The position numbers and the translations under genes are program-made. A DNA stretch of 64,000 nucleotides from a virus. This document shows, one piece after another, positions 20,565 to 25,447 of this stretch; positions within the stretch are counted from its first letter, which is position 1, and every line of letters begins with the position of its first letter. The stretch lies in IMG/VR virus record IMGVR_UViG_3300021256_000005. One strand, given 5' to 3'. The notes under the pieces are model-generated. The model was not told where the DNA came from and searched no databases. It saw only the letters and a list, made by a program, of their open reading frames with translations.

Positions 20565-20602
20565 ACAGTCTCCTTTTATAAATTTATGTTTGGTTTAAGA
20601 AC

Positions 20603-20631
20603 AGTATAATCCGGAATGGGGTTAAAGTCAA
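20603..20631 (-). promoter_or_regulatory. sigma-A-like promoter for the leftward arm
   Basis: The minus strand reads TTGACT-N17-TATACT. It lies ~40 nt upstream of the AAAAGGAG SD and ATG of the helicase gene. Confidence 0.6.
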
Positions 20632-20655
20632 GAGAAAATAAAAATAAATTAAGTA

Positions 20656-20684
20656 TTGACAAAATTAAAAAGTTGTGTTATTTT
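20656..20684 (+). promoter_or_regulatory. possible rightward promoter firing into the non-coding region
   Basis: TTGACA-N17-TATTTT with an extended -10 TG (tgtTATTTT). The -10 is weak and the context is AT-rich, so false positives are likely. Confidence 0.35.
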
Positions 20685-20783
20685 ATTATAATATATATAT
20701 ATTAATTATATATTATATATATTTATATATTAATTATATATAAATTATATATTATTAATATAATATTATTACGTTTTATTCGG

Positions 20784-20868
20784 CAGTCGTGTCAACGACT
20801 GACGATAGCGTGACGTTGCATCGCAACGGAACGCGCCCCGCCGACAGGCGGCGTTGCCGACAGGCAAC
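20784..20868 (+). other. GC-rich multi-hairpin island 1 (four consecutive short hairpins)
   Basis: CAGTCG-tgtcaa-CGACTG (20784-20801); CGTTGC-atc-GCAACG (20814-20828); CCGCC-GACA-GGCGG (20838-20851); GTTGCC-GACA-GGCAAC (20853-20868). The last two share the core GCCGACAGGC. Confidence 0.8.
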
Positions 20869-20962
20869 TGTATAATAGTATTATATATATTTATATTATA
20901 TATAATATATATTATATTTATATATATATATATATTATATATTTATATTACATACACTTAGA

Positions 20963-21028
20963 CAGCTACGCCAGTAGCTGGCTAACGGTGCTGGTATTGC
21001 GTAGCAATGCCTGCGCCGAAGCGTCGCA
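20963..21028 (+). other. GC-rich multi-hairpin island 2
   Basis: CAGCTAC-gcca-GTAGCTG (20963-20980). GGTATTGC-gta-GCAATGCC (20993-21011), with one T.G pair that is a wobble only in plus-sense RNA. TGCG..CGCA bulged hairpin (21012-21028). Confidence 0.8.
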
Positions 21029-21051
21029 GACATATATATTATATATATTAT

Positions 21052-21084
21052 TATATATATATATATATATATATATATATATAT
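21052..21084. repeat. (TA)n dinucleotide microsatellite, about 16 units
   Basis: Uninterrupted alternating ta run read directly from the sequence. Confidence 0.9.
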
Positions 21085-21154
21085 TTATATATTATACAAT
21101 AAGATAATATATTTGTCAAGTATAAAATTATAATTATTTTAATAATATATTTAA

Positions 21155-21214
21155 TTAAATATATTTAAGTATTATATTATATACTATATATTTAGTTAAA
21201 TATATTTAAGTATT
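21155..21214 (+). repeat. two direct copies of the ~20-bp element TTAAATATATTTAA-GTATT
   Basis: Perfect 14-bp palindrome TTAAATATATTTAA followed by GTATT, at 21155-21173 and 21196-21214 (41-bp spacing). Confidence 0.85.
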
Positions 21215-21453: not shown

Positions 21454-22864
21454 GTGTAATATATATAAATAAATATATTATTATATTTATATTATTATAT
21501 ATTTATTATATATTATTATATTATATATTTATTATTATTTATATTATTATATATCTATTATTCTGCTGAGTTATATTATATTAAACAGTGTGGTTGCTAT
21601 ATATTATTATTTATTAAATATTTTATCTATTACTTTATCTATCGTTTGTATTATTCATTCACACTATTGAATTGTTATTATATACCCATACAACAACACA
21701 CAGTCATTTTGTGCGCTGTTTTATATATGCAGTTTAATAAGTTTACCCTAAATTATTAAAACGTCTGTATAAGCCTAATAGATATGTTATTTGAGGTGTG
21801 CCTTTTTTGGCGGGTTCTATTTTGTTGCGTGCTAGTTCCTGAGCTGTTTAGTTTATTATTTAATCGCTGTTATTTGCGCCGCCAAATTATATATACCAAA
21901 CGTCCTGTATTTTTAGCGTGTTTGTATTTGTTTGGTTGCCTATTTAGTTTAGTGTTCTGTAAGATGAGACAGTAAACTATTTGGATGTTATATTTAGTTA
22001 TATATTATATTATATATTTATATATTATTGACTGTCCAATTATTTTTCTGCGCCTTGTATCTTTGTCGGCTTTGTTTTATATTATTACTACAGTATTTTA
22101 TAGAACCGCTTGTCTGAAACATGCCTATATCTACACCTATTGATTGTACGCATGTTTTTATGACACCACCCTATAACTTTTACGTCTGAGAATAAAAACG
22201 TCTATATGAGCGTTTTAGAGCATTGTATAATACATTGATGATTGTCTATGTGTTTTGTTTAGTTAAATAAATTTAATTAAATTTCTTTAAGTATTTATTG
22301 GTGCGCCACTAGAAATATAGGCAGTATTTGACTGCTTTGTTTTGCGATGGTAAACTGTATTAAATAATTATTTGCGTGTTTTATTACCGCCTGCGAAATA
22401 GAATAATGTATATTTATTCATTGTTTATACATTTTGACTTGTTTGGTTGTTAATTTTTGCGGCTGTAATTTTTGGTTGTAGCCGTTAATGTTTGCGATGG
22501 TCTGTTTAATGTGTAAATATACCCCGCCTGTTTATTAAGTATGAGATCGCTGTTGGAGTACTTTTTTAATGTGTTTTGTATGTTATTTAGCTGAAAGATA
22601 GTTAAGCCATTAAGCAGTCAATTAGTTTAGATGATTGTTTTATGTTTGATTGAACAGAGCAATAGTGGTTGTTTCGTATTATTATATAGCACTTAAATGA
22701 TTGCTATTGTTTTGCTGATGGTTTATTCTGCGTTATTAGACAGCTAATTAGTTGAGCAGATATATGCTAATTTGTCCGCGCTGTAATTAGTTTATTTATT
22801 GGAGCAGTAAGTGATTTGCTAGTTCTATATTGCAGTTGTTTAGTCAGTGATGTTTGATGTTAAA

Positions 22865-22884
22865 TTAGTTAGGTTCCTAACTAA
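22865..22884. repeat. perfect inverted repeat TTAGTTAGG-tt-CCTAACTAA
   Basis: Two 9-bp arms separated by 2 nt. Lies just left of the iteron cluster. Confidence 0.8.
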
Positions 22885-22943
22885 CTAGGTGCTAAGCCAT
22901 TTTTGTGGCGACTGAGGGTGTTATTTTATATTAATTATATATA

Positions 22944-23265
22944 GTTACTAATTAGTTACTAGTATTTAGCGGTTGATAATATAGTGCAGGACAATTGCCT
23001 AATTTATATGGTTACTTATTGGTTACTAATTATGTTGTTGTTTTATGCAGTGAGTGGATTCTATTAGGCGATTGAGAAGTTGATTCTGGCAGTTAATTAT
23101 TATTGAATTAAGCCGCTGAATTACTTTATTTGATTGTTGTTTTGGAAGGTGTTATTTTGTGTTGATTCGAAATTATTAGGACGTGATGTAACTAATTGTA
23201 GTTACTAATTGGTTATTAGTTACTTATTAGGTATTAAGTATGTTGTTAGTTATTTATTAGTTACG
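22944..23265 (+). repeat. iteron-like cluster of GTTACT(A/T)ATT decamers
   Basis: Copies at 22944, 23011, 23022, 23188 (GTAACTAATT), 23201 and 23219, all on the same strand, plus degenerate copies (22955, 23244-23265). Confidence 0.75.
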
Positions 23266-24619
23266 TTGCGATTTATTTAGTTGCTTCTTAATTTATTTAT
23301 GTTTTGTAATATTACTTATTCTGCGACTGATTAAGTATTGGGAAATTCATTAATCTACTGATTTTGTTATGGTTTCTAAGATATCTTCTGACGTAAAATT
23401 GGTTTTGATTAATAGTTAAATATATTTAATTATTTAGTTGAGTAGTTTTACGATTGCTGTATTGATCTGATTGTAGTTGGTAAGAAGTAATATTATTGGC
23501 TGTTAGAACTATATGGTATTAGCAGAGTATATGATTGTTGTAGTTTAGTGGTTAATTTGTTGTGTTGTTTAATTATTAAACAGTGATTTATTTAGTAGCG
23601 AGCAACAATAAGTAATAAGTTTTTAGTTAGAGTGTTAATTAGTTGTAGTGCTGATTGAACACTGATGGTTTAGTAGTGATTTATTAGAGTGATGATTGAT
23701 TTATTTATGTTTTGGTAAATTTATTTGGTTTTTGTAAATAATTTTAGGTAGATATATTTAATTATTATTTATAATGACTGAGTTGGCAAGTTATGAATGT
23801 TACTTGAAGTATTCAATTCATTTTAATAAGCCTGAGATTTTCTTGTGTCGATTTAACTTATTGAGAGTAGTTTTATAGGACGCAATTCTGATGGAACAGT
23901 TTAACAATAAGGCTACTTGATCGTTTAATTAATTAGTTAGTTATTAGGTTTTTAGTTTTTTAGAGATTGATTTAGTGGATAGTTATTTATTAATGCGGGA
24001 TTTGGTGAGTAGAACTTTTATTTAGTGAATGTGGCAGTTTGATAAGTAGGTGATGGTATAGGTTGTTAGTTAGTAATGTTGATTGGTGGTAGTGTTTATA
24101 GATTAGTGGTTATTTAGTGAATTAGTTAGTGATTGTTGCTGATGTTGATTGGTTGATAGTGTATTAGTTATGATGTTTGTTTGATTGATAGGTGTGATGG
24201 CTGTTTGTGGGTGAGTGAGTTATTTGGTAATTTTATTTGATTTTTTTGTAATTAGTTTTTGTTAGTTTCTTTAATAGTGAGTTATTTATTTGGTGAGTTT
24301 GTTGGATTTTTGGAATGTTAGTGAGTTTTTAGTGAGTTGGGAAGTGAGAAGGGTGAGATTTTGACGGGGTGTGTGAGTTTACCTCCATATAGCTATTTTA
24401 GCTTTACACTTTTGTCAAAATGTATAAATAACCCCCTTTTGACGTCGGATAATAAAAATTACCCGACATGGCACTTTTTTGACATTTATGTCAAAAACTT
24501 AATAGTTAAATTTTTTTAACTAATTTTTTAATTATATATTATATATTATGCATAATATATTATATATCATATATTATATAAAATTATATTTGACACAATA
24601 TAAATTTCCAGAGCAACAA

Positions 24620-24715
24620 AATACTTAAAAATCTTTAACCATTCCCATCCCATCAAAAATACTTAAAATAATTTAACTATTATTTTTGCTCTAAAAATAC
24701 TTAAAAATTTTTAAC
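24620..24715 (-). repeat. three tandem copies (exact 38-bp period) of the ~20-bp element, opposite orientation to the 21.2-kb copies
   Basis: AATACTTAAAAATCTTTAAC (24620), AATACTTAAAATAATTTAAC (24658) and AATACTTAAAAATTTTTAAC (24696). Their reverse complements (GTTAAAgATtTTTAAGTATT) match most positions (about 19 of 23 by eye) of the 21196 copy. Confidence 0.8.
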
Positions 24716-24814
24716 TATCTCACCAGAACAAAAAATATATTTCATCAAATATAATTTGATACAACGTTATGCTGCACGTCACCAAACAAAAAATAAATTT
24801 TTTCCAAAAACCTA

Positions 24815-24843
24815 TTGACACAACGCGATACTAGTGCTATACT
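24815..24843 (+). promoter_or_regulatory. strong sigma-A-like promoter of the rightward arm
   Basis: TTGACA (24815-24820), a 17-nt spacer, then TATACT (24838-24843) with the extended -10 TGc immediately upstream. Predicted start near 24850. Confidence 0.7.
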
Positions 24844-24849
24844 ATAGTC

Positions 24850-25420
24850 AAGATAAAGATATAACTTATTTATCTTATCGTTCGGGCACTCTGCCCGCCC
24901 ACCGCTATCACAGCGGGCGTACCTTGACAAGTTACCTGTTGGTAACTCATAAGATAGGAGAACACCGTGACGGGTGAACTCTGCCTATCGTTAGTTTGAT
25001 AATTCTAACGCCTAAAAATTATCAGCCTATCTATAGGCGTAGTTTGCATACCCATGATAGGTTTACTATGAAATCGGCAACTGAAACCGTAGTTATGATA
25101 GAGTCGTTTAGACTCAAGTAGTCGGGTACAAGCCGAGTAGTAAATTGGGATTCATGGCAGACAAACTACAGCTATAGACAGGTGACTTACCCTTTGTATA
25201 TGTGAGGGTGTCGGGCTTTTCGGGTGTCCCATCAATACATCCAGGACGAAAATCATATACCGAACAAAATTGTCAACCGACGTGCCAGGGGTTGAATGTT
25301 TGCGGACTCAGTGCGCTTAAATAGCAGATAAATTTACACCGCAACATTGGCCGCCTGGTATGTCGTTACCTTGTAAGTTGCTTTAATTGCATGAGTTTAT
25401 CGTGCAATTAACGCAACTTA
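24850..25420 (+). ncRNA. candidate large structured RNA or ~600-nt structured 5' leader of the first early gene
   Basis: No credible ORF. Visibly more G+C-rich than its flanks. Many perfect helices: 24850-24876, 24884-24896, 24931-24946, 25101-25115; an H-type pseudoknot at 24989-25024; a long-range 8-bp helix GTAGTTTG (25039) with CAAACTAC (25162); and a 17-bp hairpin at 25374-25420 just before the SD. Confidence 0.45.
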
Positions 25421-25447
25421 TAAAGCGCAATAAAAAAGGAGAAAACT

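Follow-up and report, generated by a model that had tools for sequence, protein, structure and literature searches.

The 4.9-kb non-coding region at positions 20565-25447 of the window, the 64,000-nucleotide stretch of viral DNA analysed here (IMG/VR record IMGVR_UViG_3300021256_000005), is read as an enlarged junction of the SPbeta type, that is, as a packaging and terminus hub that has been expanded and is flanked by sub-terminal spacers (probability roughly 0.55). A preliminary description of this DNA had offered the physical genome ends as an alternative to an elaborate role in replication, in transcription or through RNA. That alternative is the reading best supported by comparison, because of the synteny with the SPbeta opening point and with the Perkons terminal repeat, the flanking strand asymmetry and a short shared motif. 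The anatomy, conservation, synteny and shared compositional pattern were observed directly in the sequences compared.

Setting and extent of the region

Judged by its gene content, the window phage is a temperate SPbeta-like gut phage, with a YonO-like RdRP-type polymerase, YonJ/G/D/B, YomW/U, an MrpR-like repressor and an integrase. The late arm, which begins with the helicase/YonO-RNA-polymerase operon, lies to the left of the region and the early arm to the right; as previously described, long ORFs are confined to the minus strand on the left and to the plus strand on the right.

The region was confirmed to be free of proteins, holding no ORF of at least 68 aa and no small ORF bearing a ribosome-binding site (RBS). 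By using a 75-aa ORF threshold, the ORF-free gap was measured at 4883 nt, compared with 439 nt for the second largest in the window. Across 80 related IMG/VR loci, such a gap was at most 2582 nt. All ORFs of at least 40 aa were recorded: 67 aa (21366-21569), 63 aa (21784-21975), 52 aa (21985-22143), 60 aa (24337-24519), 61 aa on the minus strand (24745-24930) and, within the structured RNA part, three of 40-47 aa. The scan also agreed that nothing of 60 aa or more occurs in 21976-24336. No strong Shine-Dalgarno sequence at proper spacing precedes any region ORF of at least 12 aa, the 60-aa ORF at 24337 has a TTG start, no RBS and five amino-acid changes in L172 (a relative ~79% identical overall), and the ORFs within the RNA part are disrupted in the same relative. 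The statement on stop recoding in the preliminary description was upheld, given that TAA, TAG and TGA are each frequent in six of six frames.

Two other assemblies are identical to the window from 20565 to ~20864, and L172 is colinear with it over 23152-26036; as judged from these assemblies, the region genuinely occurs in other samples. The intervening ~20865-23151 (~2.3 kb) is carried by a single contig, and its exact length could be mis-assembled; TA repeats there break other assemblies, which end inside the TA-microsatellite zone described below. Phage control regions had been expected to span a few hundred bp, which holds for most relatives (junctions of 0.4-1 kb) but not for L027, TR-TP1/2 and Perkons (1-2.5 kb). 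On this comparison, the 4.9-kb size of the window junction is unusual.

Conserved core and genome ends of relatives

A conserved core, the predicted packaging or terminus block, lies at 24284-24640 (no strand assigned). The core is 92-100% identical to L172, compared with 57-87% in the adjacent gene, and the GC-skew flip falls within this most conserved DNA of the locus. It contains a GGGGTGTGTG box, the motif AATGTATAAATAACCCCC (24415-24436), five copies of TTTTGAC[AG] (24359-24496), the palindromes TTTTTGACA-TTTA-TGTCAAAAA (24474-24496) and TAGTTAAA-TTTT-TTTAACTA (24503-24522), and a pure-AT palindromic stretch (24523-24590); the core palindromes fold with z = -5.1. The AATGTATAAATAACCCCC-type motif, which was picked post hoc, is found not only in the window core but also in eight SPbeta-like loci and within the Perkons repeat. 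About 65 nt upstream of it, the window and the SPbeta-like loci have a GGGTGTG box. In L027, the best motif copy lies away from the flip.

The SPbeta genome is opened, and its packaging started, between yonR and yonP, adjoining yonO, and packaging heads towards yonP, with a sharp ~250-bp block observed (Kohm et al., bioRxiv, 10.1101/2021.11.22.469490). For the Psychrobacillus phage Perkons (MT325768.1), a 264-bp terminal repeat was defined by PhageTerm (PMC13245101). Counted from coordinates, this repeat spans -48 to +215 from the first C of the C-run, and the BUCT082 record, whose first position is not documented to be a physical end, begins at +202. These offsets predict a block at ~24384-24645 in the window, and both motif-to-end distances (+215 mapped, +202 from the record) fall on the right edge of the core. 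The L172 contig passes straight through the core, as concatemer or prophage reads would be expected to do; this gives no support.

Six relatives (SPbeta, BUCT082, Perkons, L027, TR-TP1 and TR-TP2) share, at least in part, a pattern of non-coding tracts whose inward-reading strand is G-poor, on both sides of the flip point in most. Skew at the SPbeta junction runs from +0.2 to +0.69, flips, and then runs from -0.1 to -0.44, while BUCT082 has 8% G and 27% C inside its record start and 8% C and 23% G at its record end. In Perkons, asymmetric tracts flank the repeat on either side. Conservation among related phages extends to strand asymmetry, position and the short motif, but not to a significant alignment with SPbeta (local score 34 vs 25.8 +/- 3.3 for shuffled sequence, not significant beyond short motifs) or to length, which ranges over 0.4-2.5 kb.

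Oriented iterons and a possible origin

Motif matching located the iteron GTTAAA-N4-TTTAAGTATTT in both orientations across 21154-24715, with 15 matches observed against 1.85 expected in the window and 13 of the 15 inside the region. Plus-oriented copies occur at 21154, 21195, 22276 and 23415, a perfect palindromic form at 24500-24525, and minus-oriented copies at 24619, 24657 and 24695; the last are the three 38-bp-spaced repeats noted earlier, found at 24618-24718 within a short plus-strand G-depleted tract (24601-24814; G 4%, C 19%, A 45%). Polarity flips at the central palindrome, so that flanking copies point inward from both sides, and TTAAGTAT, with 10 of its 12 window copies in the region, shows the same switch. 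Between L172 and the window, the repeat cores are conserved and the intervening spacers have diverged.

Iterons with conserved cores and variable spacers beside an AT-only stretch fit a replication origin equally well. An initiator would bind the three 38-bp-spaced iterons and the central palindromic iteron, the pure-AT stretch or the TA/hairpin zone at 20.7-21.6 kb would serve as the unwinding element, and the hairpin islands would act as priming or cruciform sites. The arms do diverge here, their cumulative GC skew has its minimum near 21.7 kb, and the TA tracts (5-13% GC) and the strongly negative z of the hairpins also fit. However, DnaA boxes (at most one mismatch) number 0 in the region and 25 in the window, no initiator-like gene was found adjacent, the replication genes being 25-35 kb distant, the skew switch in the core carries the sign of converging rather than diverging forks, and the syntenic sites in relatives were mapped as genome ends, not origins. 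An origin, which may coexist with a packaging site, is considered possible but unlikely. The earlier suggestion of an elaborate function is upheld in part: the promoter plus structured RNA described below favours it, and the positive evidence for an origin extends no further than iterons by AT-rich DNA.

Edges, skewed tracts and leader RNA

The divergent promoters proposed at the left edge were recovered as a sigma-70-like pair, both conserved in the 91% relative L004. The minus-strand promoter of the helicase/YonO-RNA-polymerase arm (TTGACT-17-TATACT, 20603-20631) is also identical in L002 and L003, and by position it is the counterpart of SPbeta PyonP, an MrpR target (PMC10516654). On the plus strand, a divergent promoter-like site (20656-20692), in which TTGACA-17-TGnTATTTT (20656-20684) is overlapped by TTAAAA-16-TATAAT, points into the non-coding region and may function as a promoter.

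The TA-microsatellite zone (20686-21562, no strand, GC 5-25%) was resolved into TRF arrays with three GC-rich islands, consistent with its earlier account, carrying four (20770-20872), two to three (20958-21030) and two (21383-21455) tandem short hairpins. Folded as DNA, the islands gave z = -4.3 to -7.3 (sliding-window z = -5 to -10). At the matching place, relatives carry (TA)n, poly-T or DNA that is almost entirely AT. An AT-rich, T-rich spacer (21563-22199, no strand) with no GC skew and no credible ORF follows.

The C-depleted tract of more than 2 kb reported at ~22200-24360 was reproduced on the plus strand (22200-24360; A 26, C 7, G 22, T 45%, with C at 6.9%), with GTTAyTwATTrG repeats inside it at 22944-23260. 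Its GC skew reaches +0.89, compared with a maximum of 0.45 outside the region, and its minus strand, the sense strand of the RNA polymerase, is G-depleted and predicted to be unstructured (MFE = 0 over 23920-24320). The identity profile against L172 is a mosaic of conserved and indel-rich blocks, and a weak 4-nt periodicity runs across the tract.

At the right edge, the near-consensus promoter and ~600-nt structured RNA were both substantiated. An extended -10 promoter (TTGACA-17-TGcTATACT, 24815-24843, plus strand), with -35, TGn and -10 all retained in L172, precedes the early arm, and a 603-nt leader (24845-25447, plus strand) runs into the RBS of the first early gene (25448). The leader has an MFE of -206.7 kcal/mol (z = -8.5) and, found in two strains only, is 80-93% identical to L172, above the identity of the neighbouring gene; its consensus fold comprises 154 pairs, 0 broken and 7 with compensatory changes. 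No intrinsic terminator was found in 24845-25447 and an Rfam search of it gave no match at E < 5, and on these models it is an orphan structured leader RNA, matching no known RNA family.

Transcription might also explain the tract. Transcription from the 20656 promoter would yield a long C-poor RNA extending rightwards across the hairpin islands and the tract, whose asymmetry would be a non-template-strand mutational bias as in genes, and the RNA, or transcription towards the core, would regulate the lysis-lysogeny switch, packaging or the late promoter. The conserved plus-strand promoter at the left edge agrees with this, the right end is certainly equipped for transcription, and the tract composition approximates that of fourfold-degenerate sites on the late-gene sense strand (A 22-36, C 6-15, G 14-31, T 33-55%). 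Nevertheless, the plus-strand fold signal of the tract is absent (z ~0), its conservation is patchy with many indels, promoter-like sites do not exceed expectation (30 found vs 38.6), and the leftward half yielded no conserved promoter, all of which make this explanation improbable. Least probable is that function is confined to the promoters and a small core, the rest being slippage-expanded filler and partly perhaps a TA-repeat assembly artefact: microsatellites, the 4-nt periodicity, indel-rich divergence, the assembly breaks in the TA zone and the sufficiency of 0.4-1 kb in most relatives suit it, but blocks of 83-100% identity and oriented iterons occur throughout the tract, L172 remains C-depleted even where its sequence has diverged or been inserted, independent samples confirm both region ends, and the compositional pattern recurs in distant phages.

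Proposed mechanism

Under the packaging and terminus reading, where the DNA is cut, which proteins take part and why the strands differ in composition are matters of inference, and we propose the following course of events. The terminase would recognise and cut within the conserved core (~24.28-24.64 kb), where the palindromes are stacked and the ATGTAwAwATA(A)CCCCC motif and a palindromic iteron at the centre are also found; the outcome would be either a pac site or a terminal repeat as short as ~260 bp. Packaging would proceed from the core towards the helicase/RNA-polymerase arm, as in SPbeta. Gene-free sub-terminal spacers would flank the core, with the 2.2-kb tract and the TA/hairpin zone on the polymerase side and 0.2 kb on the early side, and their inward-pointing iteron copies presumably bind a phage protein, for example the small terminase. 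Of the two spacer strands, the one with its predicted 3' end at the terminus is rich in G and T and poor in C, and short-unit slippage has seemingly enlarged the spacers. At their outer edges, the two arms have ordinary host-type promoters, and the early arm opens with the 600-nt structured leader RNA, a candidate regulator.

Comparison with known systems

The genome-opening point, or pac region, of SPbeta was reportedly also described by Fink & Zahler 1982. In both SPbeta and the window phage, a divergent gap lies directly upstream of a YonO-type polymerase operon with the polymerase-arm promoter at its edge, GC skew flips from plus to minus, and a GGGTGTG box stands upstream of similar motifs (GATGTAAATATACCCCC in SPbeta, AATGTATAAATAACCCCC in the window). 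The SPbeta gap between yonP and yonR, however, is 953 bp (0.95 kb vs 4.9 kb) and has no TA microsatellites, hairpin islands, GTTAAA-N4-TTTAAG iterons or 600-nt leader RNA; its ends have been mapped, those of the window phage predicted.

Perkons likewise has defined ends, which directly precede its YonO-type polymerase operon. Its repeat adjoins 1.4 kb of ORF-free DNA, is flanked on either side by inward-reading G-poor tracts and contains a TATACCCCC motif. It differs in its shorter flanking tracts (0.3-0.5 kb vs 2.2 kb), in its host group and in lacking sequence homology to the window apart from the motif.

Iteron origins such as lambda ori also have direct repeats of protein-binding sites with dyad cores by an AT-rich stretch, but the window differs in its 38-bp spacing, in copies that are distributed over 3.5 kb and switch polarity, and in having no adjacent initiator gene or DnaA boxes. 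Like ROOL, GOLLD, OLE and HEARO, the leader RNA is ~600 nt and highly structured, and the window phage also carries a true ROOL RNA (11126-11683); unlike them, the leader is fused to an operon as its 5' leader rather than being a free-standing gene.

Phage T5 has 10-kb coding terminal repeats and is unrelated to the window phage in sequence or gene content, and we know of no comparable strand asymmetry in it. Its sub-terminal non-coding repeat regions, which hold the terminal-repeat edge and the injection stop signal, nevertheless resemble the window region in being kilobase-scale and gene-free, rich in repeats and palindromes, and located next to where the genome of a large siphophage ends, as predicted for the window phage.

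Protein-free region between the gene arms

The region at 20565-25447 contained no open reading frame (ORF) of at least 68 aa, and no ORF of at least 12 aa within it had a strong ribosome binding site (RBS). At 4883 nt, this ORF-free gap exceeded both the second-largest one in the window (439 nt) and the longest found in 80 related IMG/VR loci (2582 nt). A preliminary description, made by a model from the sequence alone, had reported a 4.9-kb protein-free region with minus-strand genes to its left and plus-strand genes to its right; both points were upheld, and every sub-feature that it named was found in place. 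The same held for its claim that recoding a single stop codon would not open the region. TAA, TAG, and TGA each occurred 28-58 times per plus-strand frame and TAA 103-118 times per minus-strand frame; with all three stops dense in all six frames, readthrough of any one of them opened no long ORF, and coding with a reassigned stop was rejected. Compared with a related strain, ORFs in the region were disrupted or evolving like non-coding DNA, and the evolution of the sole ORF intact in both strains also resembled that of non-coding DNA.

Two other assemblies with an identical helicase (L002 and L003) matched the window across the first TA tract before ending inside the first hairpin island; a 91% relative (L004) broke off at the island's edge. 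The sample that yielded L004 also contained L172, a 2.9-kb contig colinear with 23152-26036 at 79% identity, and the tract of L172 kept C at 1-7%. The segment at ~20865-23151 is known from one contig alone, and its length is provisional. In the closest non-identical helicase relatives (43-47% identity), ~25 small same-strand genes separated the helicase from the point where the arms diverge (L005 1830-9426, L006 651-10008). These relatives were without a large non-coding region, so gene order at the junction is fluid.

Searching 50,697 phage records by blastn returned one spurious 84-nt match and nothing else. Exact-pattern scans of IMG/VR and JGI metagenomes with the RNA and core sequences gave no match, nhmmer searches with five sub-regions against the other related loci gave none beyond the window lineage, and a scan of genome contigs recovered cellular UvrD/PcrA genes only. 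In the comparison with relatives, which the preliminary description had proposed, sequence was conserved in L172 and a composition pattern in distant phages.

Anatomy of the region

Back-to-back sigma-70-like promoters occupied the left edge on both strands (20603-20631, minus; 20656-20692, plus) and were both kept in the 91% relative. They were followed by a TA microsatellite zone of ~0.9 kb (20686-21562), in which 6-8-bp hairpins formed three tandem islands, and then by an unskewed AT-rich spacer of 0.6 kb, which led into a 2.2-kb tract (22200-24360). The plus strand of this tract was 7% C and 45% T and its GC skew reached +0.89; no skew outside the region was above 0.45. The skew flipped within a 350-bp core (24284-24640). 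To the right of the core, a short tract of 0.2 kb with 4% G on the plus strand bore three repeats at 38-bp spacing and was succeeded by a near-consensus extended -10 promoter (24815-24843, plus) and a strongly folded stretch of 603 nt (24845-25447, plus) that reached the RBS of the first early gene. A sigma-70 consensus matching at 12/12 positions (TTGACA-17-TATAAT; 21091-21119, minus) was aimed left at (TA)n, at hairpin islands 2 and 1, and beyond them at the helicase; TA-rich DNA may have produced it by chance, or it may be a second promoter of the polymerase arm.

Relative to L172, the core was 92-100% identical, with 60 nt at 100%, compared with 57-87% for the adjacent gene. The leader RNA part was 80-93% identical, the three 38-bp-spaced repeats kept their cores while the intervening spacers diverged, and in the C-poor tract, blocks at 83-100% identity were interspersed with indel-rich ones at 28-65%.

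An iteron, GTTAAA-N4-TTTAAGTATTT, was observed 15 times against 1.85 expected, and 13 of the 15 copies were inside the region. Copies at 21154, 21195, 22276, and 23415 were plus-oriented, those at 24619, 24657, and 24695 were minus-oriented, and the copy in the core (24500-24525) was a perfect palindrome. The core also held five copies of TTTTGAC[AG] stacked with three further palindromes, among them TTTTGACA-TTTA-TGTCAAAA (24474-24496). Periodicity of 10-11 bp, as expected for DNA curvature, was absent from the region, which had a weak period of 4 only.

Identity of the phage and its gene arms

The window derives from a 77-kb metagenomic contig (ENA ERZ12302812 NODE_590), and the phage is, on its sequence, a temperate SPbeta-like siphophage. 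To the left of 20564, the minus-strand arm encoded a UvrD-type helicase, a 926-aa YonO-like RdRP-type RNA polymerase (PF05183), an HU-like protein, an aminotransferase, YonJ, a ROOL RNA, YonG, the large terminase (TerL), and YonD/B/YomW/U structural proteins. The plus-strand arm right of 25448 encoded small unknown proteins, GmrSD-N, ArdC, an MrpR-like repressor, tyrosine recombinases, an RNA-repair pair, a DnaB-like helicase, a DnaE polymerase, and an integrase at the contig end. Temperate growth was deduced from an MrpR/YopR-like protein with a PF22822 core-binding domain (37504-38415, plus), a separate tyrosine recombinase two genes downstream (38967-39923, plus), and the further integrase ~90 nt from the contig end (16840-18093 of L178, the sequence holding that end). 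In SPbeta, the recombinase-fold MrpR/YopR protein is the master repressor. The contig end is probably a prophage border.

Positions 47453-49694 held a polynucleotide kinase/HD-phosphatase-like protein and a T4 Rnl1-type RNA ligase followed by tRNA-Gln(UUG), a tRNA-repair module of a type that counters anticodon nucleases. Genes for an aminotransferase class V (13445-14560, minus), a PAPS-reductase-like protein (43100-43831, plus), a nucleoside deoxyribosyltransferase-like protein (L178 10530-10964), and a D12-class methyltransferase (L178 14609-15520) may be a sign of DNA base modification, which could bear on the odd composition of the non-coding tracts.

Between its YonJ-like and YonG-like genes, the late arm contained a full-length ROOL RNA (Rfam RF03087, 300 bits; 11126-11683, minus); the related locus L037 also had ROOL, with tRNAs after it. 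Transcription by SPbeta YonO starts upstream of yonK and of 'an unannotated non-coding RNA' (PMC5467207), so a shared feature may be a large RNA close to where the late operon begins. This reported start and the RNA fall in a second big gene-free gap of SPbeta, 1.7 kb between yonK and yonN (L180 2154-3834).

Mapped genome ends in relatives

The genome of SPbeta opens in the divergent yonP-yonR gap adjoining yonO, and packaging is headful in the direction of yonP, with a sharp, size-invariant block of ~250 bp after the opening point (10.1101/2021.11.22.469490). The promoter PyonP, in the same gap, is repressed by MrpR (PMC10516654). Psychrobacillus phage Perkons, of the YonO type, has 264-bp direct terminal repeats defined by PhageTerm (PMC13245101); in its record, 1.4 kb of ORF-free DNA separated the repeat from the polymerase operon immediately downstream. 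Like the window, in which the gap parts oppositely oriented arms, SPbeta, BUCT082, PMBT24, and Perkons all had a non-coding gap directly upstream of the YonO-type polymerase operon, and the region is thus syntenic with experimentally mapped ends in two relatives, SPbeta and Perkons. Local alignment of the core with the SPbeta gap was not significant, and nhmmer found no match.

Homology between SPbeta (L180 ~7780-7820) and Goe12 (L181) fell from 96-100% to ~40% almost exactly at the BUCT082 record cut, so the opening point may fall at a boundary of mosaic recombination. Among cultured and metagenomic relatives, and directly upstream of the polymerase operon, PMBT24 had ~700 nt of 95-100% A+T (L171 8860-9580), MT835481.1 had a (TA)n run at the scaffold start (L169 1-16), and CB457P1 had a poly-T run in the last ~50 nt of its record (L174). 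Extreme low-complexity AT DNA at the junction seems typical of clostridial members, and it breaks assemblies.

Skew flip and shared motif

The skew around the flip followed one rule: G is scarce on the strand that reads inward from the flip, and the strand ending 3' at the flip is hence G/T-rich. This criterion was proposed in the present analysis and not drawn from the literature. G-poor inward tracts flanked the flip in the core of the window, and the same arrangement was found on either side of the Perkons repeat, on either side of the junction in the BUCT082 record (a cut that, placed on the SPbeta map, falls ~200 nt from the flip at ~L180 7600), in an IMG/VR phage with 2.5 kb of ORF-free DNA (L027), and in TR-TP2, where the CDS-free gap was 2.46 kb with 2-7% C. 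In TR-TP1 it was found on the polymerase side only. A conserved skew-flip architecture around ends had no description in the literature consulted.

The plus-strand composition of the tract approximated that of fourfold sites on the sense strand of the window phage, so the tract looks neutral under the usual strand-specific bias, applied inward. Such asymmetry could arise from C-to-T and A-to-G deamination of repeatedly single-stranded 3' end tails, from inward non-coding transcription starting at the 20656 promoter, or from selection for a G/T-rich 3' strand. GC skew at fourfold sites, from small counts, was -0.29 to +0.10 in the first three early genes and +0.1 to +0.8 further on, a weak hint of a mutational gradient into the flanking genes. 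No Chi-like G-rich word was common to the tracts of the window, L172, and L027.

A motif of ~17 nt, found post hoc, occurred at the junctions in constant orientation relative to the polymerase arm: AATGTATAAATAACCCCC in the window (24415-24436), GATGT(A/T)AATATACCCCC in SPbeta and seven SPbeta-like loci, GGATATTTTTATACCCCC in Perkons (within the repeat, 45 nt from the end), and TATACCCCC in L027. The window and the SPbeta-like loci also shared a GGGTGTG box ~65 nt upstream of the motif. The sequence TATACCCCC had 27 occurrences on both strands of 1.78 Mb, ~12 of them in a junction context. A second copy of ATAACCCCCTTT, 12 nt identical to the core motif at 24428, was present inside an early gene (27082-27093, plus; gene at 26988-27344).

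Measured from the first C of the C-run, the Perkons repeat spanned -48 to +215 and the BUCT082 record started at +202. Moved to the window by analogy, these offsets predict a block at ~24384-24645, whose right edge coincides with that of the conserved core (24640). The motif-level matches are a strong lead, not proof, being post hoc in phages whose overall alignment was not significant.

Structured leader RNA

The fold of 24845-25447 had a z-score of -8.5. A consensus fold with L172 contained 154 pairs, of which none was broken, with seven compensatory double changes and ~17 wobble-compatible single changes. The 5-7 double changes compare with roughly one by chance, the latter figure being a hand estimate. 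In a less biased test, in which one sequence was folded and the substitutions of the other were mapped onto it, 19 pairs were kept and 13 broken on the plus strand, compared with 20 kept and 19 broken on the minus strand. The leader was assigned to its strand by means of its promoter and the gene downstream rather than by covariation. Support for the fold is moderate because the comparison comprises two sequences, the window and L172.

The stretch had the attributes of a generic cis-acting leader (a promoter upstream, compensatory changes in a conserved fold, and an unbroken run into the gene that follows), and no intrinsic terminator was found before the RBS of the first early gene. Scanning 20400-25600 against Rfam 15 gave no family at E < 5, only spurious TA-repeat matches; at the gathering threshold, the whole window gave ROOL and one tRNA, both elsewhere. 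A covariance model of the best RNA domain and nhmmer found no leader homologue in 1.76 Mb of related loci. The stretch is treated here as a lineage-specific structured 5' leader, and an orphan leader RNA of 600 nt had no description in the literature consulted. Other RNAs in the related loci were a Pistol ribozyme (L027 2046-2119, minus; 42 bits), a skipping-rope RNA (L025 11938-12015, plus; 59 bits), and an SR6 antitoxin RNA (L012 4528-4631, minus; 128 bits).

Interpretation of the region

An expanded packaging and terminus hub is the most economical reading of the region. The probability that termini or a pac site lie within it is put at roughly 0.55, and the exact predicted block is held with less confidence than the region as a whole. 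Terminase would act at the conserved core, the sub-terminal gene-free spacers would bear binding repeats directed inward, and the hub edges would be formed by the promoters of both arms, with the structured leader RNA on the early side. Genome ends had been the secondary suggestion of the preliminary description and are now the best supported, by synteny and the shared skew signature, although the alignment was not significant and the motif was post hoc.

The chief competing explanation is a replication origin, which may share the region with a packaging site. An origin would explain iterons lying beside AT-only DNA (24523-24590 is pure AT), arms that diverge at the region, and a TA/hairpin zone at the cumulative-skew minimum. 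However, no DnaA box at ≤ 1 mismatch was present within 20-26 kb, the adjacent genes encode a UvrD-type helicase and small unknown proteins rather than an initiator, the replisome genes are far away at 51-61 kb, and the skew flip in the core has the wrong sign for an origin. The primary suggestion, an origin or an RNA-based function, is supported only for the leader RNA on the right; the origin part is opposed by the lack of DnaA boxes and the wrong-sign flip.

Good copies of the iteron, considered as SPBRE-like MrpR operators, were confined to the region; this role was unsupported because none stood at window promoters outside it. A role for the hairpin islands as promoters of the N4 hairpin type, used by the phage polymerase, was set aside, since YonO in SPbeta initiates upstream of yonK and downstream of yonO-yonN, outside the yonP-yonR gap (PMC5467207). 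Decayed early genes were dismissed as the source of the region because its composition and repeats do not resemble decayed coding DNA.

The packaging and terminus hub can be extended to a general, and in our view improbable, proposal: that SPbeta-type phages share conserved, undescribed 'telomere-like' ends, in which gene-free sub-terminal tracts with inward protein-binding repeats lie on both sides of the packaging cut, the strand running 5' to 3' towards the DNA end is G/T-rich and nearly C-free, the tracts have grown to several kb here, and the asymmetry is functional rather than a mutational by-product. Were this true, the tracts might protect ends against host exonucleases, load terminase or an annealing protein on 3' tails, or help to circularise injected DNA. 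A functional asymmetry would add a new principle to what is understood of phage genome ends, and a mutational one would record which strand is single-stranded at phage termini.

Comparison with SPbeta-type phages

No definition of the pac sequence of SPbeta-like phages, of the nature of the ~250-bp block, or of their replication origin was found in the literature consulted, and the core provides a compact candidate with named motifs and palindromes. The oriented repeat family should possess a protein partner, and the compositional signature could allow genome ends to be recognised in uncultured relatives with nothing but their sequence. The early operon is headed by a new structured leader of 600 nt, in a phage that also encodes a ROOL RNA. 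The SPbeta gap is a miniature of the window pattern, with a skew of +0.2 to +0.69 beside the polymerase arm and then of -0.1 to -0.44, and the locus described here is an unusually large and elaborate variant of the junction known in SPbeta-type phages.
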